Shown piece after piece: positions 44 to 24,663 of a stretch of 28,922 nt of DNA. Under the pieces are notes generated by a model that did no database searches, was not told the origin of the DNA, and saw nothing but the letters and a program-made list of their open reading frames with translations. Position 1 is the stretch's first letter; every line of letters begins with the position of its first letter. The DNA is from Ignavibacteriales bacterium (GTDB taxonomy: Bacteria > Bacteroidota > Ignavibacteria > UBA10030 > UBA6906), in the NCBI GenBank assembly GCA_037441705.1, contig JBBIRR010000046.1, forward strand, positions 1-28,922, given 5' to 3'. The position numbers were made by a program, and so were the translations under genes.

Positions 44-74
44 GAGGGAGTTGCTCGGCTCCCTCTTTTTCTTT
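44..74 (+). terminator. Rho-independent terminator of an upstream (out-of-window) gene
   Basis: GAGGGAGTT-gctc-GGCTCCCTC stem followed by TTTTTCTTTT. Confidence 0.7.
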
Positions 75-97
75 TGGATGATCGAAGGAAGAATGTC

Positions 98-2512
98 ATG
101 AATGCCCTGCTCACACTTCTTGCCGCTCTCGCCCTTCTCACCAACTCCCTGCATGCCGGTGACAGGTACTCGACCTACTCCAAGGTGAGAATCCACGTTC
201 GCGAGGCGACTGACATTGAAACCATGCAGCGGCTGGGAATCGACCTCGATCACTACACCGGTACGCTGCAGGAAGGAATTGATGTTGTGATCAATCGGGA
301 TGCCGTGGAGACACTCCGCGCGGCCGGCATTCCTCATACCATTCTCATTGCGGATATGGACGAATACCACCGCAACCGGCCGTCGGCGACGGAGAGTGCG
401 ATGGACCTGAGCCGACGCATTCTCGAAGAGAATGGAGTCCGAGACTTCCGGTACGGCTCGATGGGCGGATATCTGACGTACGCCGAGGTTGTTGTGCAGT
501 TGGACTCCATGCGCTTGCTCTTTCCGAACATCATCACTCCCAAGGAATCGCTCGGCGTCACGGAACAGGGCAGAGTGATTTGGGGGGTGGAGATTTCGGA
601 CAACCCCGGGCAGGCTGAACCCGGCGAAGCGGTGGTCCACTTCGACGCGCTGCACCACGCACGCGAGCCCCAATCAATGGCCACCATCATGTACTACCTC
701 TACTGGCTGTTGGATAACTATGGCACCGATCCCGAAGCGACCTACCTGGTGAATAACCGGCGCATCTGTTTCGTTCCCGTTGTGAATCCCGATGGCTACT
801 TTTACAACCAATCCATCAGTCCCAACGGCGGCGGCAGCTGGCGCAAGAACCGTCGCAACAACGGGGACGGCAGCTTCGGGGTTGACCTGAATCGCAACTA
901 CAACTACATGTGGGGGTACGACAACGTCGGTTCGAGTCCGATGCCTTCCTCGGACACCTATCGCGGGCCTGCGCCGCTTTCGGAGCCTGAGACCCGCGCC
1001 ATCCGCAACTATACGATGCAGAAGCTTCCGTCCATTGCTATGTCTGCACACTCGGTGGCGGGACGCTACCTCAATCCCTACAGCTACAAGGATACTGTCA
1101 TCTCCTACGAGTATTATGCCGAGTATGCCAGCGACTTCACGCGAGAGAACAATTATCTGTACGGGACGGTGTATCAGATGCTCTCCTACAATTCGAACGG
1201 AACGACACGCGACTATCTCCACCATGATCTCGGCTGCTATGCGTGGACGCCGGAGATGGGAGGAAGCGGCTTCTGGCCCGCGCGGGCCGAGATCGTTCCC
1301 ATCGCGCAGGAAAATCTCCTCGCGTGCAAATACATGACGTGGATTGCTGGCGCCTTTGCCGACTATCACGCATTCGAGATTGTCGGACGCGGCTACTGTC
1401 TACGAGGCGATACGCTCCGCTTTACCATAACCGTGCGGAACAAAGGCGTATCCCTGCCGGCACAGAACGTCACCGTTTCCGTCCAGTCGCTCTATCCGCA
1501 TGCGACGGCCATTACCTCTAACGCCGCCTATCCGACGATTGCGCCACGCGCTGCAGCGGTCAATGCCGCGCCGTTCGAGTTCAGCATCAGCGCCTCCGCT
1601 GCAACCGGCGACGAGATGAAATTCATCGCAATCACGACGCAAGACGGCATCGAGACGTCTCGCGACACGCTTTCAATCGTTGTCGGCTATCCGGCAGTTG
1701 CGTTTTATGAAGATGCGGAAGCCGGCATCGGCCGATGGACGCCGGCCGGTAACGGCGTGCAGTGGGATACGACGTTCGTGATGGCCTACAGGGGCACTCG
1801 CTCCATTGCGGACAGTCGCTACGGCAACGTTGCCAACAGTACGAACAACACACTCACGCTCACAACGCCCATCAACCTTGCCGGCATCTCCAACCCGCGC
1901 CTGGAATTCTTTGCCCGGTGGGCCAATCAGGCTGCATCCGATTACGTCCGACTGCAAATCAGCACGAACAACGGCTCGACATGGACGGCCCTTGCGGGAC
2001 GATTCACAACGTCGGTGGGCGGTCAACCCGCGTACACAGGAAACATGGGAACGTGGGGTTGGGAATCCATCAGCCTTGCGCCGTATGCAGGCCAGCAGAT
2101 CAAGCTCCGATTCAATCTTGTCACCAATAGCAGTCTGCGCGGCGACGGGTTCTATTTTGACGAGATGCGGGTGGTGGAGTATCGGGACTCTACGGTGAGC
2201 AGCGTCGCCGGCGGAGAAGAACTCCCCGCGGCGTTTGCACTCGAGCAGAACTATCCGAACCCGTTCAACGCGCAGACACGGATTCCGTTCACGGTTCCTA
2301 AGCTACCGGCAGGGAAGCAGGAGTCGGGACGCGCGTCGCTGAAGATTTATGACGCTCTGGGCCGTGAGGTTGCGGCGTTGATCAACGCGGACCTGAAACC
2401 GGGGAGGTATGTTGTTGCCTGGGATGCCGCCGGGTTTGCTAGCGGCGTCTATTACTACCGGCTGATCGTCGGGGCACATTCATCAACGCGAAAGTTGGTC
2501 TTGATCCGGTAA
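98..2512 (+). CDS. Secreted M14 zinc carboxypeptidase (carboxypeptidase T-like) with Ig/beta-sandwich domains and T9SS C-terminal sorting domain
   Basis: HARE zinc motif, NPDG, WRKNRR, GVDLNRN, catalytic TPE; C-terminal LEQNYPNPFN...GVYYYRL...RKLVLIR. ATG at 98 (signal peptide MNALLTLLAALAL) preferred over TTG at 74. Confidence 0.9.
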   Translation: MNALLTLLAALALLTNSLHAGDRYSTYSKVRIHVREATDIETMQRLGIDLDHYTGTLQEGIDVVINRDAVETLRAAGIPHTILIADMDEYHRNRPSATESAMDLSRRILEENGVRDFRYGSMGGYLTYAEVVVQLDSMRLLFPNIITPKESLGVTEQGRVIWGVEISDNPGQAEPGEAVVHFDALHHAREPQSMATIMYYLYWLLDNYGTDPEATYLVNNRRICFVPVVNPDGYFYNQSISPNGGGSWRKNRRNNGDGSFGVDLNRNYNYMWGYDNVGSSPMPSSDTYRGPAPLSEPETRAIRNYTMQKLPSIAMSAHSVAGRYLNPYSYKDTVISYEYYAEYASDFTRENNYLYGTVYQMLSYNSNGTTRDYLHHDLGCYAWTPEMGGSGFWPARAEIVPIAQENLLACKYMTWIAGAFADYHAFEIVGRGYCLRGDTLRFTITVRNKGVSLPAQNVTVSVQSLYPHATAITSNAAYPTIAPRAAAVNAAPFEFSISASAATGDEMKFIAITTQDGIETSRDTLSIVVGYPAVAFYEDAEAGIGRWTPAGNGVQWDTTFVMAYRGTRSIADSRYGNVANSTNNTLTLTTPINLAGISNPRLEFFARWANQAASDYVRLQISTNNGSTWTALAGRFTTSVGGQPAYTGNMGTWGWESISLAPYAGQQIKLRFNLVTNSSLRGDGFYFDEMRVVEYRDSTVSSVAGGEELPAAFALEQNYPNPFNAQTRIPFTVPKLPAGKQESGRASLKIYDALGREVAALINADLKPGRYVVAWDAAGFASGVYYYRLIVGAHSSTRKLVLIR

Positions 2513-6326: not shown

Positions 6327-7253
6327 TCAGAATGTGACGGTAATGGAAAACGTGTGGGCGCTTCCGAGGTTCTCCGAGAGCGGAGCGAAGCCGTAATCAA
6401 TCCCGAACATCCCGTGACGAACGCCAAGGCCGCCGGCAAATCTGCGCGCGCTCGATCCCGCCTGCAACCCGATGCGTGCCGCGACCATATCGTTGATCAG
6501 CAGCTCCGCGCCTGCATTGACGTACGATCGCTTTTCTGGAACGATGTAGAGGAAATCGGATGCGATCATCAGCTGCGCCGTCAGGCTCTCGATGTCCAGC
6601 GTGTAAGCCGGGCCAAGGCGAAGGAGAGAGGGGAGCGTGATCTTCTCGGTGCGCAGCGCATTCATGCTTCCCAGGTTTGCGAGCGCGATGCCGACACGCA
6701 GGTTTTCTATCGGCGTCCGGTACTGCGCGCCGACGTCGAAGGCAAGGCCGTGGGCGTCGTCTACAAAAATTTTCTCGAAGAGAAACTTTCCCGTTACGCC
6801 GAGTTGGAATCGGTCGGAGAAGCGTCGCGCGTACGACGCCGCGAGGACGTAGTCGCGAGACGTGAACGTTCCTTCGGCGCTTCCCGGTCGCGTGCGGATT
6901 TGGATGTCAGAAACGGTTGCCGTGTTGATCGAGAGGCCGAGGGCGTTCTCATCGTCAAGCTGCACGCTGACTCCGAGAAACTGCGTGCGGATGTCCTGAA
7001 TCCATTCCCGATGCATGAGGAGGAATTGGGTTGATCCGTTCTCCGGACCGAGAAGACCGGCGGGATTGTAGTAGGTGGCTGCTGCGCCGTTGGCACTTGC
7101 GCTCATGGCATCACCCAACGCAACAGCGCGGCCCGAAACGCCTAACTTCAAAAATGCCATTCCCGATTTTCCCGCCTGCGCATACCCGCCGTGCGTGCCA
7201 AGCAGAAGACATACAGCGAAAGCTGATAGCAAAGGAAAGCGTTGCCGGTTCAT
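6327..7253 (-). CDS. PorV/PorQ-family outer-membrane beta-barrel
   Basis: FLKLGVSGRAVALGDA...YYNPAGL N-terminal motif, amphipathic strands, terminal Phe. Start moved to ATG 7253 (MNRQRFPLL signal peptide) to avoid overlap with the upstream gene. Confidence 0.8.
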   Translation of the reverse strand: MNRQRFPLLSAFAVCLLLGTHGGYAQAGKSGMAFLKLGVSGRAVALGDAMSASANGAAATYYNPAGLLGPENGSTQFLLMHREWIQDIRTQFLGVSVQLDDENALGLSINTATVSDIQIRTRPGSAEGTFTSRDYVLAASYARRFSDRFQLGVTGKFLFEKIFVDDAHGLAFDVGAQYRTPIENLRVGIALANLGSMNALRTEKITLPSLLRLGPAYTLDIESLTAQLMIASDFLYIVPEKRSYVNAGAELLINDMVAARIGLQAGSSARRFAGGLGVRHGMFGIDYGFAPLSENLGSAHTFSITVTF

Positions 7254-7261
7254 ACGTTCTC

Positions 7262-8302
7262 TCAAAATCTCACCGAAATCGAAATCATATGCATGCCCGA
7301 ACTTGTGAACGGCTCCACGACGAAGGCATAGTTCAGCGCCGGCGTCCATGCATCGAAATCTCTTCTTGCCGAGAAGCCGAAGGACGGACGGACGCCCATG
7401 CCTTTTTCCTTCAGGTCAATTCTATCGAGTCCGGCTCGTACAGTAATCTCCGGAAGGACAGCGATCTCGACTCCCACTTTGAGCTGAAGCGTGGACTGAT
7501 CGCTCAACTCCATATCCACGGCAGCGACACCGAGCGTGTCGGGCAGCCGGTACGCCGCCCCGATGGTGTACAGACGCGGGAATTTGTCGGTCGTTGTCGC
7601 CGCGCGCTGCTCGCCATAAACGCCTTTCGTATCCCAACTGTACTTGGAGCTGAAATCCCGTGCCGTCGCCCCGATCGTGAGGTGATCAGAGATGGGATAG
7701 AGAAGGCCGAGATCGAATCCGAAGGTTGAGGAGTTGACGCTTGTGTACAGATGGTGATACAGATACTTGATAGTGACGCCGAGAGCAAGCCGGTTTTTCA
7801 GACTCGTCCCGAAGCTGAGAAACGCCTGATTCTCCGACGTCTGCAGCAGTCCTGTCGGTTCGCCATCGGAATCTCGGCCATCAATTCCTGTCACGCCGGA
7901 GTTGATGATGCCGACGGCCAGACCGGCACGCGGGCGGTTTGTCACAGTGTCGTTCCCCTGTCCCAGCGGCTGGACAAAGCTGAGGAAGTTCAGTCTTCTA
8001 TCAAGAGAAAGAATGCCAAAGGAAGCGGAGATGGTGCGATACTCGGCAAACGGCAGCGTTGCCGGATTGTAGTAGCCGACAGCGTCACCGGTCGTAACTG
8101 CCGTGAGTGCGTTGCCCATGCCCAGGCCACGGGCGCCGAATCCCATGCGACTGTACGCGCCGGCTTTCCCGCCAATCTGAGCAATTGCGGAAGTGATTGA
8201 CCCAACGATGATGACTACGACGATGGCTCCGGCCATCACTCTCAGAAAGAGGGCGGCGAGCTCCGATGCCGTTTGTCGCATCGAATGAAGTCGAAGGATC
8301 AT
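7262..8302 (-). CDS. PorV/PorQ-like outer-membrane beta-barrel (second paralog)
   Basis: MGFGARGLGMGNA...YYNPA motif, terminal Phe. ATG at 8302 forms an ATGA overlap with the upstream stop. Confidence 0.75.
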   Translation of the reverse strand: MILRLHSMRQTASELAALFLRVMAGAIVVVIIVGSITSAIAQIGGKAGAYSRMGFGARGLGMGNALTAVTTGDAVGYYNPATLPFAEYRTISASFGILSLDRRLNFLSFVQPLGQGNDTVTNRPRAGLAVGIINSGVTGIDGRDSDGEPTGLLQTSENQAFLSFGTSLKNRLALGVTIKYLYHHLYTSVNSSTFGFDLGLLYPISDHLTIGATARDFSSKYSWDTKGVYGEQRAATTTDKFPRLYTIGAAYRLPDTLGVAAVDMELSDQSTLQLKVGVEIAVLPEITVRAGLDRIDLKEKGMGVRPSFGFSARRDFDAWTPALNYAFVVEPFTSSGMHMISISVRF

Positions 8303-9843
8303 TGCAGCACCATCACCTTTCCCCACGACGCCTCGCTGCCGTCAACGATTACGCGGTAGAAATAAACTCCGTTGGCAACCTGACGTTTCGCGTCATCTAG
8401 GCCGTCCCAGATTTCATCATGCTCGCCGGAACCTGAACGCTGCGCGTCCTTGATGATCGTGCGGACGCGGTTCATTCCAAAATCGAAAACCTCTACCGTG
8501 ACGAGGGCACTCCGCCCTCCGGTACTGTAATGGACGCGAGCAACTTCCTGCTTGGGCGAGAAGGGATTGGGATAGACATACGTGCTGTTTGTCGTTCCGA
8601 CAGAACGAAATGCGCGCAGAACCTGCCACGACTGGCCGAACGGATGCGTTGCATTGTCCACCGTCTTCACCAATCCCTCACCGCTGCCGCAGTACACAGT
8701 GTCGCCGATGACACCGACGGAAAAGAACTGTCGGCTCACCAGTCTGTGTCCCGAGACCCGGTCAACGATAGTGCCCGATTGCGTCCACGACTCGCCGCCG
8801 TCGGAAGATCGGAACATCCCTTCGTCGGTTGCGATATAGACGATCGAGTCTTTGAAAGCGAAGTCGTACGCCTTGATGCCGTGCAGGAAGGTGTGCCAGA
8901 TGCGCCCGCCATCGTCGGTATAGCTTACGCCAAACTGTTCGTTGGGGTCTTCCGCCTTCCAGTTGGTGCACCAGATGCGTTTGCGTGTTCCGATCTGCTG
9001 TCCGTCAATGGCGATCACCCAGTTGCCGAGGATGTGTGCGACTTGATTCTGTGCGGAGAACTTCACCCAGCTCACGCCGCCGTCCGTTGATTTGTTGATG
9101 CCGCCGGCGGTGCCGGCCCAGATGGTTGTGTCATCCTCCAGATACACGGCAAAGCCGAGGAAGTTGTTGTTGCGGCGGGGGTCCATGATGTACCCGCCGA
9201 GTTGATCGGCAGGGGAAATGGAATTCCGATTGTCCGCGGGAAGAACCGTCCGAATCCACGTTTGTCCGCGGTTGGTTGATCGTCGTATGCCGCTGGACCA
9301 GCTTGCAATCCACACGACGCTGTCCGTGAAGGCAAGATCGAATGTCACATTCTGCTCAGGCACGATGATGGGAAGAAAGTTGATCCGATTCGCTCCGTAC
9401 ATCACGATACTGTCGTCGGGGGCATCAAGGGGTTGCGGCACATGCGTCCAGCTTGCCCCGCCGTCGAGGGAATACGTGTAGCCTGAGCCGGTCTGGACTG
9501 TCCGGTTAGGTTCGTCTTTGAGAGGCTTGTTGAAGCCGGTGGCTGTCCAGATGGTACTGCCGCGAACGGCGAGCGAGAAAATGCCGTCGTTCGCGAACTC
9601 AGGAACGGAACGAAAGCTTTCCCATGTTGCACCGCCATCGCTTGTCCGGGCAAGTCCTTTGCTTGTACCGATGTAGAGCTCGGTACCCTGTGCTGCAATC
9701 TGAGAGATAGAGTTGCTCGGCAGCAGATTGCCTAACGATCCTGAAGTGGAAAGCCGTGGAGAACTCAATGCCTCAACCTGAGCTGCTGCGCTTGGGGCCA
9801 GGACTATGAAATAAACGAGGATGCTTGCTGCACGTCTCATCAT
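8299..9843 (-). CDS. Secreted BNR/Asp-box beta-propeller protein with C-terminal FlgD-Ig / T9SS-type domain
   Basis: Repeated S-x-D-G-G-x-(S/T)-W motifs; YPNPFSP...WDGLD...VANGVYFYRV. Confidence 0.8.
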   Translation of the reverse strand: MMRRAASILVYFIVLAPSAAAQVEALSSPRLSTSGSLGNLLPSNSISQIAAQGTELYIGTSKGLARTSDGGATWESFRSVPEFANDGIFSLAVRGSTIWTATGFNKPLKDEPNRTVQTGSGYTYSLDGGASWTHVPQPLDAPDDSIVMYGANRINFLPIIVPEQNVTFDLAFTDSVVWIASWSSGIRRSTNRGQTWIRTVLPADNRNSISPADQLGGYIMDPRRNNNFLGFAVYLEDDTTIWAGTAGGINKSTDGGVSWVKFSAQNQVAHILGNWVIAIDGQQIGTRKRIWCTNWKAEDPNEQFGVSYTDDGGRIWHTFLHGIKAYDFAFKDSIVYIATDEGMFRSSDGGESWTQSGTIVDRVSGHRLVSRQFFSVGVIGDTVYCGSGEGLVKTVDNATHPFGQSWQVLRAFRSVGTTNSTYVYPNPFSPKQEVARVHYSTGGRSALVTVEVFDFGMNRVRTIIKDAQRSGSGEHDEIWDGLDDAKRQVANGVYFYRVIVDGSEASWGKVMVLQ

Positions 9844-10899: not shown

Positions 10900-11883
10900 C
10901 TACTGGAGGGGCCATGTCATCGGAACAAGCGAAAAGCATCCGATGAAGATTGCGGCGCACAACCACCCGAGCGCCATGCGCGTCGGATCTAACGGTGTGT
11001 CGTCTTCGAGCGGCGGACGCCGAAGGTTGATCGATCGCATCATGAAAATCAGAATCATCGCCCAGATGAACCACCCGAACCAGCCGTATCTGAAGTCTAT
11101 GCCCAGTTCCGGCAGCAGGCTCGACAAACCGAGCAACACGAGAATGACCAATGCAGTTTGCGCAATGGTATGATAGCGGTTGCCGAACATGGCGTAGGAA
11201 ATGTGTCCGCCGTCCAGCTGTCCGATGGGGATCAGATTCATCGCGGTCACCAGCATGCCGAACCAACCGACGCACAGAAACGGGTAATGGTAGATTTCAT
11301 TCATCGGAGGAATGAACGCACCGCTTGGGGCAAAGAGATACTCGAAGAGTTTGAGAAAAGCCGTCTCGCCAAAACGGAGACCCGTTTCAGGGATGGCGGG
11401 AAGCAAAGCGTACTCGGGATGAATCGTGTAGAGATATTCTTTGGAGGGAAGAGTGCTATAGCCGATCGCCAGCGTGATAGCCGTGACGACGAATCCTGCG
11501 ATAGGCCCTGCCGCGCCGATATCAAACAGGACTTTGCGCGACGGGATGGCAGAACGAATGCGGATGACAGCTCCCATCGTTCCGAAATTATTGATCAACA
11601 GAAACGGGGGAAATGGAATGAAGAACGGCAGGGTGGTCTTGACGCCATGATACCGCGCGGCAAAGTAATGCCCAAACTCATGCGCGCTCAACATCGCGAG
11701 GATGAGCAGGGAGTAGGTCAGTCCCGAGGGGAAATTCGAAAGCTCGAACGGATTCTTGACGAGCCACTCGACGCCGGCAAGCGTTGTGGTGAAGAACGTG
11801 AGAACGAAGAGTGTAATATGCACAGCGTAACGTTTCCACCGTATCTCCGCCTCCTGCTGAACAACGACGAAATCCTGGTCCAT
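10900..11883 (-). CDS. Site-2 protease (M50 intramembrane zinc metalloprotease)
   Basis: HEFGH, FDIGAAGPIAG, NLIPIGQLDGGH, multiple TM segments; GAGGA RBS. Confidence 0.92.
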   Translation of the reverse strand: MDQDFVVVQQEAEIRWKRYAVHITLFVLTFFTTTLAGVEWLVKNPFELSNFPSGLTYSLLILAMLSAHEFGHYFAARYHGVKTTLPFFIPFPPFLLINNFGTMGAVIRIRSAIPSRKVLFDIGAAGPIAGFVVTAITLAIGYSTLPSKEYLYTIHPEYALLPAIPETGLRFGETAFLKLFEYLFAPSGAFIPPMNEIYHYPFLCVGWFGMLVTAMNLIPIGQLDGGHISYAMFGNRYHTIAQTALVILVLLGLSSLLPELGIDFRYGWFGWFIWAMILIFMMRSINLRRPPLEDDTPLDPTRMALGWLCAAIFIGCFSLVPMTWPLQ

Positions 11884-11972
11884 TCCTCAAGCGAAAGAAA
11901 TCTGAAACAAAACTGTCTCGCATGTGTCTTCAATATAGTGAAAAAGTCTTGAACGTGCGCTGCGCGTACGAC

Positions 11973-12012
11973 AAAAAAAAGCGCCGCCCGATCATGCAAC
12001 CGGACGGCGCTT
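11973..12012 (-). terminator. Rho-independent terminator of the repeat-peptide gene
   Basis: Minus strand AAGCGCCGTCCGG-ttgcatga-TCGGGCGGCGC followed by T8, about 20 nt after the stop at 12033. Confidence 0.85.
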
Positions 12013-12032
12013 CAAATACCCTTGGTGCTAAT

Positions 12033-12281
12033 TCAGGGGCGCGGCGAGTCGGGCATTGCTGCGACGCCACTCTTGGGACGCGGCGAGTCAAGCATTGCAG
12101 CCACACCGCTCTTGGGGCGCGGTGAGTCGGGCATAGCCGCAACTCCGCTCTTGGGCCGCGGTGAGTCGGGCATTGCTGCGACCCCACTCTTGTCCGCGAT
12201 TCTTGAAATGGCAAGGTTGGTGCCTGCCACAAGCGACAAAACGACAACCAGCGAACGGAAACGCTTTCCTGTTTGTGTCAT
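12033..12281 (-). CDS. 82-aa putative secreted peptide precursor with four KSGVAAM(P/L)DSPRP repeats
   Basis: ATG with AGGGGG RBS, basic plus hydrophobic N-terminus (KRFRS-LVVVLSLVAG), repeat differences nearly all synonymous, own promoter and terminator. Confidence 0.8.
   Translation of the reverse strand: MTQTGKRFRSLVVVLSLVAGTNLAISRIADKSGVAAMPDSPRPKSGVAAMPDSPRPKSGVAAMLDSPRPKSGVAAMPDSPRP
12036..12191 (-). repeat. 4 x 39-bp coding tandem repeat
   Basis: Units 12153-12191, 12114-12152, 12075-12113 and 12036-12074; differences at third codon positions except one CCC>CTT. Confidence 0.95.
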
Positions 12282-12525
12282 GAGAGTATCCCCCTAATTG
12301 TTGGATTGTTGGTTATATGAGTTATCGGTAAGGCGAGTTCACATCCTTAGTGGGTGAAGACCTTCGATGGCACTGCGCGAGAGGCGTTTTCCCCTCCTTG
12401 AAGGCATGACAGCACATGCTGCGATTTCACGAGACACATTCCCCGGCCCTGCTTATCGGAACGTAAGGTGAGAGGCACGGCTAAGGTCCCCCTGTCTTGC
12501 TGTGCTTGTTGTGGTAACGCTGAAA

Positions 12526-12554
12526 AATATAGGTAATGCCAATGGGAGAGTCAA
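12526..12554 (-). promoter_or_regulatory. sigma70-type promoter of the peptide gene (about 240-nt leader)
   Basis: Minus strand TTGACT-N17-TATATT. Confidence 0.65.
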
Positions 12555-12593
12555 TAGAGGATTCTACGTAGTGTCACCTATGTCCTGATTTAT

Positions 12594-12610
12594 CCAATCA
12601 CAAAGATTGG
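12594..12610. promoter_or_regulatory. Palindromic candidate operator between divergent promoters
   Basis: CCAATC-acaaa-GATTGG perfect inverted repeat. Confidence 0.45.
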
Positions 12611-12640
12611 CACACTTGACGTAAGAAATAGCGTTTTCTC

Positions 12641-12669
12641 TTGACTTGCTTGTTGGTGTTCGATATATT
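12641..12669 (+). promoter_or_regulatory. sigma70-type promoter of the membrane protein / AAA+ regulator operon
   Basis: TTGACT-N17-TATATT; AAGGAAG RBS before ATG 12699. Confidence 0.7.
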
Positions 12670-12698
12670 TCAAACGCATTTCTTAAGGAAGCAACCGA

Positions 12699-13844
12699 AT
12701 GAGTCTCGCCAAGAAGATAAGCCTCATCTGGAGTTTGCTCATAGCGGCATTTCTCGCGTCGTTTTTGCTTCCCCATTACGAGGTAACAACGGCAAGTTTT
12801 CTCAGCTATTCGATACAATTGTTGTTGCTTGTCCTTTCGGTCTACCTGGTCAAGCATGAGACGGTGAGAAAGACGAGATTTATTTTCATGAACTTTGCAG
12901 CGTTCTTTAGCACATCATTCCTCTTTCATCTTTACAACTTCGTCGGGACGGTTCTGTTTCCGCGTGCAGAGATGGCGCGCCATTACTACTTCCAATACGT
13001 CCCGCTTGGTTTGTATTTCTTTTTGCTAACATTTGCGATCTGTTACCTCACAGTGGATTTGCTCTTCCGCGACTTCAAGATCGGACAGAAATATCTTCTC
13101 ACCTTTGTGATCGTCGGAGGGTTCTTCGGTTACTACTATCACCCGTACTTTGCGAATCCGCGTTACCTGTACACGGTGCCTGCAATTGCGGAGTGGAAGC
13201 AACTGGATCAAGCCAGTGGAGAGTTTCAGCAGCTGTACGGCGCAATGCCCACCGAGCAGCAGTTGGTGGAGTTTCTCCAGAATAAGGCAATTGTACCTGG
13301 CGTGAATGGTGCGTACGCAGAACCACTCGAGATACGTGTACGAGAATTGTATCCGTACCTTCCGGGGTCGAACTACATGATCTTGCTTCTGAAGCCGATC
13401 TACCTGAATACGATCTACATGTGTGTCCTCTGCGTCGGCCTGATCCTGCTCTTTTTCGGATACCAGTACAAGAAAGATCCGCCGCAGGGTGCGTACATCG
13501 AGAAGATGATGTTTTTCTTTTTGCTCTTCTGCACGCTCGAGGTGTTCCACGCGTGGAGTTTCATCAAAACGATCGAGTGGCAGGAGTTTTCCCAGTTTGT
13601 GATCATCGGACAGTATCTTTCCGCGGGTGTGCTCGCCTGTGTTGCCGTGTTGTTCGGATTGCGTCTCCGCTTCATCACGTCAGCCTACGGCGAATTCTAT
13701 GAGCACGAAATCGCGGAGCGACCGAACACCATCACCCGCTGGCGTGATGCCGTTGACAATCTGATGCTTGCGCATTTCTTCAGCCGCAACCAGTTTGTCG
13801 GAAGATTTCTTGTGATGCCGAGACTTCGAAACAAACATCAATAA
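12699..13844 (+). CDS. Uncharacterised polytopic membrane protein (about 8 TM, one large loop); candidate peptide receptor
   Basis: About eight hydrophobic segments, ~80-aa hydrophilic loop after TM5, ~55-aa C-terminal tail; no recognisable catalytic motif. Confidence 0.8.
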   Translation: MSLAKKISLIWSLLIAAFLASFLLPHYEVTTASFLSYSIQLLLLVLSVYLVKHETVRKTRFIFMNFAAFFSTSFLFHLYNFVGTVLFPRAEMARHYYFQYVPLGLYFFLLTFAICYLTVDLLFRDFKIGQKYLLTFVIVGGFFGYYYHPYFANPRYLYTVPAIAEWKQLDQASGEFQQLYGAMPTEQQLVEFLQNKAIVPGVNGAYAEPLEIRVRELYPYLPGSNYMILLLKPIYLNTIYMCVLCVGLILLFFGYQYKKDPPQGAYIEKMMFFFLLFCTLEVFHAWSFIKTIEWQEFSQFVIIGQYLSAGVLACVAVLFGLRLRFITSAYGEFYEHEIAERPNTITRWRDAVDNLMLAHFFSRNQFVGRFLVMPRLRNKHQ

Positions 13845-13925: not shown

Positions 13926-14960
13926 ATGGAAGCAAAAACCACTCATGGAGAAAAGAAAGCCGGGGGTGCTTTCGAATATCCAATCGTTGGGAAAAGCAAA
14001 GCAACCGAGCAGTTGATTCGCTCGATACAGAAACTTGCGAAAATCCGTCGTGACGTTGTCATTGTTGGGGAAGCCGGAGTCGGCAAGGGCGCGGTCGCAA
14101 AGAATATCTACCACCTCAGTAAGGGCGAATCGAAGAACGGAGATCAAGAACAGCCGTTCATGTCGATCAACCTCTCGGTGGTGGACGACCGCGAACTGGA
14201 AGCAACGCTCTTCGGCTTTGACCGCGGCGTTGAAGGGCTTCCCTACACCTCGAAGCGCGGACTGTTCGAGCAGGCCAACGGCGGTACGGTTCTCATCGAA
14301 GAGATCGAGGAAGCGAGCTTCCGGAACCAGATGAAGATTCTCAACTTCATCAACGAGCGCAAGACGCGGCGCATCGGGGGCGAGACGAAGGAGAGCGTCG
14401 ACATTCGCCTCATCATCACGATGAAGGAAGATCCGGCACAACTCGTGGAAAAGCGCAAGCTGCTGGAAGACCTCTACGCCAAGGTGTTGGAGTTTGAGAA
14501 GATCGAGATTCCACCGTTACGACAACGACCGGAAGACATCCCTCTTCTGGTCAAGCACTTCACCAGCGAGATTTGCAGAGACCTTGGCCTCGGAGAACTC
14601 GTCATTGACATCAATGCCATTGATGTCCTCGTCCGCCAGCCCTGGAAAGAAAACATCCGCGAGTTGAAAGCCGTTGTCGACAAATCCGTTCTCTTCTCGA
14701 ACGAGGGGCGCTTCTCGTTGCCGCCCGAGCTGGTCGATGAGAAGACCGAAGTGGTGAAGATGATCAACAATATCATGGCGGGGCAAGAGTTCGTGCTCGA
14801 TAAGTCGCTCGACGTCATTGAGAAAGGAATCATCGAGCGGTCGCTGGATCGGTTTGGCTTCAATCAATCCAAAGCGGCGGCCTTCCTCGGCATGACGGAG
14901 CAAACCTTCCGCTACAAACTGAAGCGCCTCGGCATTGCCAGCGCACGGTCGAGAACGTAG
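13926..14960 (+). CDS. NtrC/Fis-family AAA+ transcriptional regulator without input domain, degenerate sigma54-interaction motifs
   Basis: GEAGVGK Walker A, LFG, GLFEQANGGT, IPPLRQRPEDIPLL, NIRELK, NQSKAAAFLGM...YKLKRLGI HTH; GAFTGA replaced by GVEGLP. Confidence 0.88.
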   Translation: MEAKTTHGEKKAGGAFEYPIVGKSKATEQLIRSIQKLAKIRRDVVIVGEAGVGKGAVAKNIYHLSKGESKNGDQEQPFMSINLSVVDDRELEATLFGFDRGVEGLPYTSKRGLFEQANGGTVLIEEIEEASFRNQMKILNFINERKTRRIGGETKESVDIRLIITMKEDPAQLVEKRKLLEDLYAKVLEFEKIEIPPLRQRPEDIPLLVKHFTSEICRDLGLGELVIDINAIDVLVRQPWKENIRELKAVVDKSVLFSNEGRFSLPPELVDEKTEVVKMINNIMAGQEFVLDKSLDVIEKGIIERSLDRFGFNQSKAAAFLGMTEQTFRYKLKRLGIASARSRT

Positions 14961-15044: not shown

Positions 15045-16154
15045 TCATCGTTGCTCAAACGTTCGTTCCTTCCAGCTGACGTTTCGACTGAAGATGACAA
15101 GCGGGGGGAACAGAAGAACATAGACCATGTAGTAGATTTCAAACGGCAGGAAATACCACAGCAGGCGTCTCGCGTTGAAGGCGCGGAGCGCAGGCCAGGC
15201 GAGGACGGCGTCGAGGAGTGTTTTCAAGGCGAAGGCGGAAAGAAACGCTGCCATGTGCCCAACGGCAAGCGTCACGACAAGCAGTGCCTTGAAGGCATAG
15301 CCCAACCCGAACAGCGACAGGCTCTTCCAGTCCATCTCCGCTCCACCGGTAAACCAGCGTTTTTTCTGATTGAACAGATGCTTCCACGATTCGCACGGCA
15401 GGCTGAAGACGAGCGTGCGCGCGTCGATGGGGAATCGGGCGACGTACCGCTTTGTTCGAGTGATGGCATGAAAGAGCGCGTAATCTTCGGTAACGCTGAA
15501 CGGGATTGTGCGGTATCCGCCAACGGCATCGTACGCCTCTCGGCGCACGGAGAGGTTGTTGCCCACTGCGGTGACGGGAAAGCGCAAGCGGTTCGTTCCG
15601 GCAGCGATTGAAAAGAGCACGAACCAGTCCAATGCTTGAATTGCCTCAAACGGCGTTCGCGCGCGCAGCGACGTGAAACCGGCAACCAGACCCACCGAGG
15701 GCTCGTTGTAGTACTTTACCGTTTCCTCGACCCACCCTTTCTGGACGACGCAATCGGCATCGGTGAACAGGACGATCTCTCCCGTTGTATGTTCGATGCC
15801 TTGCGCAATGGCGTTTGTTTTTCCATGCAGCTTTCCGCTCGGGTCATCCACGGCATTGAGCGAATGGATGAAAGAGTAACGACGCGCAAAGTCGTTGATG
15901 ATGGAGCCTGTTCCATCGGTGGAATGATCGTTCACTACAAGGACTTCGAGCTTCTCTTTCGGGTACGTCAGACGCGAGAGGGAGTCGAGACAGTGCCGCA
16001 GGTTTGCTTCCTCGTTTCGTGCTGCAACGATAACCGAGACGGTCGGTCGGTATGCAGCGTCCGACCGGTAGCGTGCCTTGGAGGCTCCTATCGCAAAAAA
16101 AAGAATCTGAAGAGTGTAGAGAAGGGCGAAAAGAAAAAGCAGATCGAGAAGCAT
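15045..16154 (-). CDS. Glycosyltransferase family 2, membrane-bound
   Basis: VSVIVAARNEE, NDHSTDGT, FTDADC, TED, QKKRW motif, terminal TM helices. Confidence 0.9.
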   Translation of the reverse strand: MLLDLLFLFALLYTLQILFFAIGASKARYRSDAAYRPTVSVIVAARNEEANLRHCLDSLSRLTYPKEKLEVLVVNDHSTDGTGSIINDFARRYSFIHSLNAVDDPSGKLHGKTNAIAQGIEHTTGEIVLFTDADCVVQKGWVEETVKYYNEPSVGLVAGFTSLRARTPFEAIQALDWFVLFSIAAGTNRLRFPVTAVGNNLSVRREAYDAVGGYRTIPFSVTEDYALFHAITRTKRYVARFPIDARTLVFSLPCESWKHLFNQKKRWFTGGAEMDWKSLSLFGLGYAFKALLVVTLAVGHMAAFLSAFALKTLLDAVLAWPALRAFNARRLLWYFLPFEIYYMVYVLLFPPLVIFSRNVSWKERTFEQR

Positions 16155-16183
16155 GCAGTAGCGGTGGCAAATATTTCGCCATC

Positions 16184-18971: not shown

Positions 18972-19076
18972 TCGCCGCATACGGTTTGGGAAACCTCGCC
19001 CGCATCCTCCTTTTTGTTTCTGATTCGCCTCTTCGCTACTTTGTGTGCAGAAAGTTCCATGCCTTGACGCTTGCTC

Positions 19077-20483
19077 ATGTTTATTGATACGCATGCCCAT
19101 ATCACTGCCGAGCAGTTCGATCAAGATCGAGATGACGTGATCCGCCGCGCGCTCGATGCCGGCGTTCACGCGATTGTCAATCCTGCCACCGATCTCGATG
19201 ACAGCAGGCGCGCCGTCGCGCTCGCCGAAAAACATAACGGCGTGTACGCGTGCGTCGGCTTTCATCCACACGAAGCACGAAAAGCCGATGACGCCTCGCT
19301 GCGCCAACTCGAAGAACTCAGCACGCATCCCAAAGTCGTAGCCATCGGCGAGATCGGGCTGGATTTTCACTACGACTTCTCTCCGCGCGACGTACAGCAG
19401 CGCGTGTTTCAGGCGCAGCTTGAGATCGCCCGTCGGCGGAATCTACCCGTCGTGATTCACACTCGAGAATCGGAAGAGGAGACGGTCGCATTGGTGGAGC
19501 TGGCCGTTGCTGCTGCACCGTCCTGGCGGAACCATCGCGCCGGAGAGCGCTTCCCCGGTGCACGAGGCGTCTTCCATTGTTTTTCGGGCGACACCGCCTT
19601 AGCCTGGAAACTGATTCACATGGGATTCTTCATCTCGTTTCCCGGCGTCGTGACGTTCCCCAACGCTGCACGCACCGCCGACGTAGCCTCCGCCATCTCG
19701 CTCGAGCACATCCTTCTGGAGACCGACAGCCCGTATCTCACCCCGCATCCGCTGCGCAAGAAGGAGAAGCGCAACGAGCCCAAGAACATTCCCCTCATTG
19801 CCGAGAAGCTCGCCTCTCTTCAGCATCTTTCAGTGGAAGATGTTGCGCGCACAACGTGCTTCGGCGCGTACAAACTGTTCGGCATCGGCTCGCCCGGTGA
19901 ACCACGATTCACCTACACGCTGCGCAACGCGCTCTACATCAATCTCACCCTGCGATGCAATGCCGACTGTGTCTTCTGCGATCGGAAAGGAGAAGCAGTC
20001 ATCAAAGGCCACAACCTGAAAATCGAGCGTGAGCCTTCCGTGCAAGACGTTATCAACGAAATCGGCGACCCCACGCGCTACGACGAAATCGTCTTCTGCG
20101 GTTACGGCGAACCCACCATTCGCCTCGACGCCGTGAAAGACATTGCACGCTGGGTGAAAGCCCACGGCGGCCGCACGCGTCTCAACACCGACGGCCACGG
20201 CAACATCATCAACAAACGCAACATCGTGCCCGAGCTGGTGGGCCTGATTGACGCCGTCTCCATCAGCCTGAATGCAATCGATCCCGTTCAGTATGGCGAG
20301 CTGATGCGCATTGACGGCAAAACATTCTTTCCGGCGATGCTGGACTTCGCGCGTGAAGCACGCCGCCTCCTGCCGCGCGTCATCATGACGGTGGTCGACA
20401 TGGATGGCATCGACATCGCGCAAGCCCGGCGGTTCGTCGAGCACGAGATCGGTGCAGAGTTTCAAGCGCGGCCGTACTTTTGA
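19077..20483 (+). CDS. tatD: TatD-family hydrolase fused to a TatD-associated radical SAM domain
   Basis: DTHAH, GEIGLD, HTRE, HCF, ETDSP; then LYINLTLRCNADCVFC (CxxxCxxC), FCGYGEP, RLNTDG. Confidence 0.9.
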   Translation: MFIDTHAHITAEQFDQDRDDVIRRALDAGVHAIVNPATDLDDSRRAVALAEKHNGVYACVGFHPHEARKADDASLRQLEELSTHPKVVAIGEIGLDFHYDFSPRDVQQRVFQAQLEIARRRNLPVVIHTRESEEETVALVELAVAAAPSWRNHRAGERFPGARGVFHCFSGDTALAWKLIHMGFFISFPGVVTFPNAARTADVASAISLEHILLETDSPYLTPHPLRKKEKRNEPKNIPLIAEKLASLQHLSVEDVARTTCFGAYKLFGIGSPGEPRFTYTLRNALYINLTLRCNADCVFCDRKGEAVIKGHNLKIEREPSVQDVINEIGDPTRYDEIVFCGYGEPTIRLDAVKDIARWVKAHGGRTRLNTDGHGNIINKRNIVPELVGLIDAVSISLNAIDPVQYGELMRIDGKTFFPAMLDFAREARRLLPRVIMTVVDMDGIDIAQARRFVEHEIGAEFQARPYF

Positions 20484-24572: not shown

Positions 24573-24663
24573 TCCGAATCCTGCATCCTGAAGCCTGAAC
24601 CCTGAACCTTGAACCCCGAACCCTAAACCTCAAACCTCACACCTCAAACCGCATCCTGCATCC
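24573..24663 (+). repeat. Degenerate heptanucleotide tandem repeat (CCTGAAC/CCTCAAA-like)
   Basis: cctgcat cctgaag cctgaac cctgaac cttgaac cccgaac cctaaac ctcaaac ctcacac ctcaaac... Confidence 0.85.

Follow-up and report, generated by a model that had tools for sequence, protein, structure and literature searches.

A stretch of 28,922 nucleotides from an Ignavibacteriales bacterium (assembly GCA_037441705.1, contig JBBIRR010000046.1, positions 1 to 28,922; the whole stretch is called the window throughout) carries on its minus strand a small gene for a multi-core peptide precursor, in which a leader is followed by four copies of a short, proline-rich peptide. Judged from the alignment of its homologs, this gene represents a lineage-restricted precursor family whose leader is conserved and whose multi-core repeats are hypervariable. 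As read from the codon comparisons, strong purifying selection holds the cores of any one gene identical, whereas from lineage to lineage they differ. The precursor gene belongs to a cassette of three genes, the other two encoding a membrane protein of 381 amino acids, here termed TM381, and an AAA+ regulator. The peptides may be exported, released and sensed through these two partners.

The layout of the gene was confirmed by the list of open reading frames (ORFs) and the translation: as the initial annotation had stated, a leader of 30 amino acids precedes four units of 13 amino acids, which reach the stop codon exactly. The codons reported there were found correct as well, namely GGG/GGA/GGT/GGC for glycine, GTC/GTT/GTG/GTC for valine, GCA/GCG/GCT/GCA for the first alanine and CGG/CGC/CGT/CGC for arginine, and the units indeed differ by a single amino acid change, proline to leucine in unit 3 (CCC to CTT, 12090..12092). 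Using Tandem Repeats Finder the array at 12036..12192 was detected with a period of 39, 4.0 copies, 82% matches and a score of 202. Nine nucleotide columns vary among the four units, distributed over codon positions 1, 2 and 3 as 0, 1 and 8 (binomial P = 0.00097 for at least eight of nine at one named codon position). The precursor gene is single-copy in its own genome of 3.83 Mb and 92 contigs.

The codon pattern alone cannot pick the strand, because an antisense frame (12022..12297, plus strand) is equally open and has its wobble positions in common with the minus-strand ORF, a caveat absent from the initial annotation. One could thus hold that the minus-strand ORF is not a functional gene and that the repeat is non-coding or the plus-strand ORF the real one, and the latter frame is indeed free of stops both in the window and in 13 of the 16 orthologs parsed. 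However, stops break it in 3 of the 16, its TTG start would sit within the terminator hairpin, and the ribosome-binding site, leader, exact end and terminator of the minus-strand reading are kept across the family. Read by eye, all 17 parsed orthologs have a purine-rich site of the GGAG/GGGG type 5' of the ATG, and in 12 of the 17 a hairpin with a T-run lies 3' of the stop, with two weaker cases and three without. We regard the probability of the antisense or non-coding explanation as next to negligible. On the evidence of the ribosome-binding site, the terminator, the conserved leader and the broken antisense frame, which settle the strand, the minus-strand ORF at 12033..12281 is a real gene.

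Relatives of the precursor were collected from 5.8 billion proteins, yielding 68 proteins of 45-144 amino acids. A profile from 35 relatives, run over 1.84 billion proteins, matched 108 representative clusters at E<=0.001 and 43 at E<=1e-10. Long proteins (>215 amino acids) among these matches were not counted as family members, since they match the repeat part of the profile only, and no fused or much longer form carrying the leader was found in the same search. None of the models in Pfam, NCBIfam and PADLOC matches the precursor, and the protein atlas gave only sub-threshold matches (0.79). The public records with the family are metagenome-assembled genomes (MAGs) that carry the labels Ignavibacteria, Ignavibacteriales and Bacteroidota/Bacteroidetes; a few are labelled Chitinophagales or Chlorobiaceae. 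In the family alignment (A1) the leader residues K6, R7, R9, N22, A24 and S26 are nearly invariant. By its sequence the leader is probably a Sec signal peptide of the export type, and in the window precursor the -3/-1 rule would presumably place its cleavage after A-I-S.

All unit statistics were taken over 67 homologs, with P0068 left out as a frameshifted gene call. Four units were present in 43 homologs, three in 14, two in 8, five in 1 and one in 1, and all units of a protein were identical in 50 of the 67. The unit motif reads S-[GNTS]-[VIAL]-x-x-[LIVM...]-P-[DE]-x-P-[RK]-P, and its positions 1, 7, 10 and 12 do not vary across the 52 distinct majority units. These 52 were counted among 66 majority units and contain 42 distinct central tripeptides, so that the cores are hypervariable. 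They are short, proline-rich and of near neutral charge, most of them without cysteine or aromatic residues. The internal linkers (n=169) consist of K in 149 cases, R in 18, G in 1 and Q in 1, and the residue preceding unit 1 is A in 32 homologs, K in 25, R in 8 and T in 2. In the 32 homologs with alanine, unit 1 comes immediately after S-[YF]-A, a site of signal-peptidase type that agrees with the -3/-1 rule for signal peptidase I, and the last unit of the homologs ends at the stop codon. Within a distant member the cores are identical, whereas the spacers between them, two to thirteen residues long, are unlike, and some of these members have a short tail after the last core; their cores reach up to 15 residues and differ widely, nearly all ending in P-[RK]-P. 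One member (L050) carries only one core, followed by a C-terminal tail. As the leader cleavage site, or else a basic residue, thus fixes the N-terminus of the core, and the stop or the next linker its C-terminus, these boundaries favour the 12-residue core SGVAAMPDSPRP as the functional unit, with lysine as the linker. The calculated [M+H]+ is 1184.573 for the 12-mer, 1200.604 for its leucine variant and 1312.668 for the 13-mer. The heptapeptide MPDSPRP, which had been among the suggested mature products, is not favoured by the same boundaries.

Selection on the copies was analyzed by pooling all within-gene core pairs from 17 loci (Nei-Gojobori method; L019 skipped and L021-L023 left out). 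The proportion of synonymous differences (pS) was 0.622 (407/655) and that of non-synonymous differences (pN) 0.0237 (41.7/1757), giving a pN/pS of 0.038, although two degenerate loci were included, which raise pN. Within the orthologous genes the units are the same in protein and recoded at 5 to 13 of 13 codons; the core variants of related species include AHM and MNI. The earlier proposal of a multi-copy precursor-like gene in which the peptide and not the DNA is conserved is thereby upheld, both by the eight of nine variable columns at codon position 3 in the window and by the orthologs. One ortholog (L035 / L017, G020:C4 ~44957..45194) looks frameshifted, its leader lying in another frame than its units; the three units show non-synonymous differences at 7 of 13 codon columns (pN 0.27), and it may be taken as a natural control, an example of relaxed selection.

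Units are somewhat more alike inside one genome (2-8 differences) than compared to any unit of the sister genome (7-11), with no orthologous diagonal. Two units are identical in DNA in one genome (G001), and another (G006) has the core of G001 in only two copies. The comparison suggests a slow turnover of units by duplication and loss, which would let a new core spread through the array, and a long purifying selection on every copy thereafter. The leucine copy had been interpreted as a possible variant signal. This was not supported, as the sister gene (96% identical) has proline in all four units and position 7 is proline in every one of the 52 distinct majority units. The leucine of unit 3 is private to the window genome and more likely marks a damaged copy than a second signal.

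The surroundings of the precursor gene were compared in related genomes. TM381, divergently transcribed, adjoins the precursor in 20 of 20 loci, and the regulator gene is next to TM381 in 16 of 16 loci whose contig extends far enough. A gene for an M50 peptidase (site-2-protease family) lies downstream of the precursor in 19 of the 20 loci, the 20th stopping at the contig end. In a sample of 201 genomes of the class the precursor profile matched 12, of which 11 were credible. The twelfth match (G172; L054, G172:C118 ~16014..16166) was rejected as spurious; it is a repeat of 39-nucleotide period without a leader, with several frames open on both strands, inside a long open frame. TM381 matched 20 of the 201 genomes, including all 11 credible precursor carriers; among the other nine, most were contig ends beside TM381 or distant paralogues, and one had a single-core variant. 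Over the phylum sample (301 genomes) TM381 was found in 17, all of the window's own order. M50 was present in 185 of the 201 class genomes. In 6 of 6 precursor-negative genomes of the same order the block from M50 to PorV was intact, the trio was absent and another gene stood in its place. As the trio is present or absent as a unit while M50 stays, the precursor belongs to a three-gene cassette with TM381 and the regulator. The M50 gene is not a dedicated partner, since it is near-universal in the class, and appears to be an ancestral, housekeeping-type neighbour. Besides the precursor, TM381 and the regulator are the only members of the cassette, with no modifying enzyme, dedicated protease or ATP-binding cassette (ABC) exporter among its genes.

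Paralogous pairs of TM381 and regulator, some with two TM381 genes in a row, were found in four genomes (L044, L045, L046 and L047 in G039, G031, G072 and G028, respectively), which supports the two working together. At L047 a 92-amino-acid ORF (7213..7491) with a similar basic-hydrophobic leader is divergent from the TM381 paralogue.

The TM381 protein is predicted, by positive-inside reading by hand, to have eight transmembrane (TM) helices with both termini inside and a variable loop of ~85 amino acids between TM5 and TM6. Its invariant residues lie mostly in a cytoplasmic loop and in the C-terminal tail (alignment A2), and the loop between TM5 and TM6 is 46-70% different within the genus, compared to 7-8% for the regulator. 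Neither Pfam nor NCBIfam matched TM381, and the protein atlas gave no usable match. The AlphaFold2 model reached a mean pLDDT (predicted local distance difference test) of 85.7 and a pTM (predicted template-modelling score) of 0.83. Comparing this model with the PDB by Foldseek, 0 of 173 matches had E<=0.001. The top rows were peptide-hormone G-protein-coupled receptors; they were rejected as generic helical-bundle noise, with template-modelling scores <=0.38 throughout the search. TM381, read as an eight-helix protein, has no known family or solved fold and is a candidate receptor.

The regulator shows the hallmark of bacterial enhancer-binding proteins (bEBPs), an AAA+ sigma-54 interaction domain with a C-terminal helix-turn-helix (HTH), and by domain search it has no N-terminal sensor domain. 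PspF-type bEBPs likewise lack an N-terminal sensor domain and are controlled in trans by a partner protein. The regulator resembles them in consisting of AAA+ and HTH only and in always being paired with a gene for a partner that does not bind DNA; it differs in that this partner is an eight-helix protein of no known family and in that the GAFTGA loop is replaced. The NCBIfam pspF model scored 180.7 bits on the regulator, below the cut-off of 443.55. In the alignment to NifA the sequence GVEGLP was found at the GAFTGA position, and the loop was non-canonical in 21 of 21 parsed orthologs (of 27). Because of this replacement it is doubtful that the regulator works through sigma-54, and it may act without it. 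The rpoN gene is present in the window genome. Upstream of the precursor no -24/-12 element was detected in 17 orthologs using three patterns.

A sigma-70-like promoter candidate faces the precursor at some distance (Table 1); it matches by consensus only and would imply a long 5' leader, and its TATATT is kept in the alignment of genus orthologs. Within the intergenic region (12282..12698) divergent promoter-like sites of the form TTGACT-17-TATATT face both the precursor and TM381. Further conserved elements were observed among the genus orthologs: CCGATAA ~45 nucleotides and GGGGGA-N7-9-GTG ~150-200 nucleotides 5' of the precursor ATG, the latter followed in several orthologs by the palindrome CTTCGAAG. 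The GGGGGA-N7-9-GTG element as the start of a conserved small ORF was rejected, as no such ORF is conserved. Rfam gave only sub-threshold, terminator-like matches over 11700..12800. Coordinates of the precursor, its control elements and its neighbours are summarized in Table 1.

Table 1. Coordinates of the precursor gene, its parts and control elements, and the adjacent genes in the window.
Feature	Position	Strand	Description
Precursor gene	12033..12281	-	82 amino acids and TGA stop; from ORF list and translation
Leader	12192..12281	-	30 amino acids; n-region basic (K-R-F-R), next a hydrophobic core, TNLAIS and RIAD at the end
Unit 1	12153..12191	-	linker Lys and core SGVAAMPDSPRP
Unit 2	12114..12152	-	linker Lys and core SGVAAMPDSPRP
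Unit 3	12075..12113	-	linker Lys and core with Leu at core position 7 (CTT, 12090..12092)
Unit 4	12036..12074	-	linker Lys and core SGVAAMPDSPRP; stop immediately after
Ribosome-binding site AGGGGGA	12289..12295	-	7 nucleotides 5' of ATG
Intrinsic-terminator-like hairpin and T-run	11968..12013	-	16 pairs, 9 G-C; begins 19 nucleotides past the stop
Promoter candidate TTGACT-17-TATATT, sigma-70-like	12526..12554	-	10/12 consensus matches; ~245 nucleotides 5' of ATG
TM381, proposed sensor	12699..13844	+	381 amino acids; divergent from precursor
AAA+ / Fis-HTH regulator, bEBP family	13926..14960	+	PF00158 Sigma54_activat 3.1e-37; PF02954 HTH_8 7.8e-12
M50 peptidase (site-2-protease family)	10900..11883	-	Pfam PF02163 6.7e-20; same strand, 3' of precursor

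We propose the following chain for the cassette. The precursor would be exported by the Sec pathway, and its leader would be taken off by signal peptidase. An extracytoplasmic endopeptidase would then cut at the Lys/Arg linkers or the spacers and the linker residue would be trimmed, so that four 12-mers could be released per translation product. The 12-mer would act as a lineage-specific extracellular signal binding TM381, whose conserved cytoplasmic loop and tail would control the AAA+ regulator and hence transcription. Possibly the regulator would also act on the cassette's own divergent promoters, resulting in autoinduction. Taking export, processing and sensing together as we infer them, we consider the whole chain, an exported multi-core propeptide with 12-mers sensed through TM381 and the regulator, almost an even call that leans slightly toward doubt.

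Sensing by TM381 was addressed by complex prediction and by co-divergence. For TM381 together with precursor residues 27-82, both entered as alignments, the prediction returned 'weak support' with a score of 0.52 (runs 0.52, 0.59 and 0.51). The best of three controls reached 0.00, the contact agreement between runs was at least 48% and the pLDDT of the partner at least 36. In the calibration of the tool 58 of 80 solved complexes cleared the pass mark, as did 2 of 110 mismatched pairs; at scores <=0.60, just 7 of the 80 solved complexes passed, plus both mismatches, and a pass at such a score is more often wrong than right unless the pairing is likely beforehand. In partial Mantel tests over 15 taxa the core distance tracked TM381 outside its variable loop beyond the divergence of the regulator (r=0.58, p ~0.002). 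This co-divergence of core and TM381 constitutes weak evidence for sensing.

Several results weigh against the proposed signalling chain. The complex score was a weak pass with the peptide modelled at low confidence. The co-variation of the core with the TM381 loop amounted to r=0.25 (p=0.059) controlling for the regulator and to r=-0.14 controlling for the rest of TM381, leaving loop-specific co-variation unsupported in the 15 taxa; related taxa in these tests are moreover not independent. No repeat-peptide gene was found in our own scan beside the paralogous TM381-regulator pairs of the four genomes, and the cassette has neither a protease nor an exporter of its own. The linkers are not universal, some members using D, H or spacers without a basic end, and therefore no single protease rule applies. 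Upstream of the precursor in the 17 orthologs neither a sigma-54 promoter nor a clear regulator-binding site was detected, and because of this the autoinduction loop is pure inference. The carriers of the precursor are all uncultured MAGs.

Some of the same observations bear on other explanations. The 12-mers might be exported and cut as proposed yet not be sensed by TM381, serving instead as a protease inhibitor, an inter-species antagonist or a peptide made by ribosomes and modified after translation (RiPP) with an unlinked modifying enzyme, while TM381 and the regulator only control or accompany production. RiPPs and toxin-like peptide families likewise combine a conserved leader with hypervariable cores, the layout matches fungal precursors which comprise pheromones as well as modified toxins (PMC7329392), and the weak pass of the complex prediction points in the same direction. 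However, the cassette lacks a modifying enzyme, a dedicated protease and an ABC exporter. From the short, proline-rich, near-neutral cores, mostly free of cysteine and aromatic residues, one would hardly expect lytic or cross-linked peptides, and the strict co-occurrence of the cassette genes fits a cognate pair better. We judge a role of this kind unlikely, if by no means far-fetched. We would say much the same of a precursor that stays uncut after export, free in the periplasm or tethered by its uncleaved leader, and acts on TM381 as a multivalent repeat ligand or an anti-activator; as a bait, for instance, it could report stress when envelope proteases degrade it. The conservation of the leader is unusual for a signal peptide, the copy number of four is tightly held (43 of the 67 homologs), the rules for linkers do not hold throughout the family, L050 carries one core and a C-terminal tail, and the cassette partner is a membrane protein, all of which would suit an uncut product. 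Nevertheless, core 1 begins right at the S-[YF]-A site in the 32 homologs described above and the last core reaches the stop, and the spacers of the distant members vary freely while their cores are identical, as expected if cores are excised and spacers discarded.

The neighbouring M50 peptidase suggests yet another explanation, namely that the precursor is its substrate and that cleaving the leader within the membrane is what counts for function, in the manner of regulated intramembrane proteolysis or of the Eep-type maturation of pheromones. The M50 gene is located directly downstream on the same strand in nearly all loci, and a conserved asparagine lies within or at the end of the hydrophobic stretch of the leader; helix-breaking residues favour cleavage by site-2 proteases. 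On the other side stand the 185 of 201 class genomes with M50 versus 11 with the precursor, the six precursor-negative relatives which retain M50 and its downstream block without the cassette, and a strong terminator between precursor and M50. Because of this prevalence, the cassette-free blocks and the separating terminator, the adjacency looks like ancestral gene order, and a substrate relationship was considered very unlikely. The downstream block itself contains adjoining outer-membrane genes of the PorV/PorQ family (6327..7349 and 7262..8326, both minus strand), preceded by a BNR/sortilin-like protein with a C-terminal domain of the type IX secretion system (T9SS) and a 312-amino-acid 'choice-of-anchor X' protein. 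Throughout the order the PorV/PorQ block is kept together with M50, whether the cassette is there or not.

Comparing the cassette with known systems, similarities and differences were observed for each. Cyanobactins are made from multi-core RiPP precursors, and the window family resembles precursors of this type in its conserved N-terminal leader followed by several hypervariable cores. It differs in a leader that looks like a Sec signal and, as judged from the cassette and the conserved block, in the lack of a co-located modifying enzyme or dedicated protease. Sites of Kex2 processing are dibasic (KR/RR). The linkers of the window family are single K or R in 167 of 169 cases, and the bacterial host has no Golgi and no Kex2. 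The closest architecture is nonetheless that of the fungal Kex2-processed repeat proteins (KEPs), among which are yeast alpha-factor, the ustiloxin precursor and pheromones (PMC7329392). Like KEPs as described there, the window family has a putative signal peptide, tandem identical cores between basic sites or short spacers, and repeats that are diverse between lineages; the window family is much smaller (50-120 amino acids).

The closest bacterial case is that of the tandemly duplicated Phr propeptides of the RRNPPA quorum-sensing family (Rap/Rgg/NprR/PlcR/PrgX/AimR), known from Bacillota and their phages (PMC11343458). By the same source these are likewise small, Sec-exported propeptides that contain a short linear peptide more than once, lie beside receptor or regulator genes and are diverse between lineages, with Sec export and sensing being presumed for the window precursor. 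They mature by extracellular proteolysis, which may apply to the window precursor too. Leader and unit boundaries of the latter would fit a small propeptide with a C-terminal linear pheromone, an RRNPPA feature. In contrast to Phr, the cores of the window family comprise 12-15 residues in up to five exact copies and share the P-[RK]-P end. The window family resides in an Ignavibacteria-like diderm, its neighbours are the eight-helix protein and the AAA+ regulator rather than a cytoplasmic receptor of the tetratricopeptide repeat (TPR) type, and no import system was evident for the peptides of the window precursor. The analogy to Phr peptides drawn in the initial annotation does not hold when taken as family membership, since no RRNPPA-type receptor is encoded nearby; the neighbours are TM381, which matches neither Pfam nor NCBIfam, the AAA+/HTH_8 regulator and M50. 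With no TPR receptor, monobasic linkers, another phylum and new partners, the window precursor belongs to neither RRNPPA nor KEPs.

Elsewhere in the window an M14 zinc carboxypeptidase of 812 amino acids with a T9SS C-terminal sorting domain is encoded at 74..2512 (plus strand). Enzymes of the M14 type remove C-terminal lysine or arginine, and by this analogy the carboxypeptidase is a candidate for trimming the linker residues. In a single ORF of 470 amino acids (19071..20483, plus strand) a TatD-type hydrolase domain and a radical SAM domain occur together. Between the HEAT-cyclophilin and DUF4835 genes, a degenerate heptanucleotide array (GAACCCT / AAACCTC) of ~10 copies was located at 24576..24650.

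Peptide-based communication is textbook knowledge for Bacillota and fungi; to our knowledge, very little of it is on record from Gram-negative lineages and nothing from Ignavibacteria. A literature search, judged from the search results rather than from full texts, returned no paper on the precursor family or on peptide signalling in Ignavibacteria. We consider it possible, if rather doubtful, that the cassette represents the first linear-peptide, pherotype-diversifying cell-cell signalling system in Bacteroidota and the Fibrobacteres-Chlorobi-Bacteroidetes (FCB) group and one of very few in diderms, with TM381 as a new class of receptor that would control in trans a sensor-less and GAFTGA-less AAA+ regulator, and with peptide and receptor co-diversifying between species. 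The module is compact, comprising three genes with a precursor product predictable to the residue, a candidate receptor with a confident model and an unusual AAA+ regulator. Should the signalling reading fail, the family would still be an unannotated class of hypervariable peptides, predicted to be exported, in abundant uncultured bacteria of sediment and groundwater. With synonymous sites near saturation and identical protein copies, it offers a clean natural example of selection on each tandem copy of a peptide.

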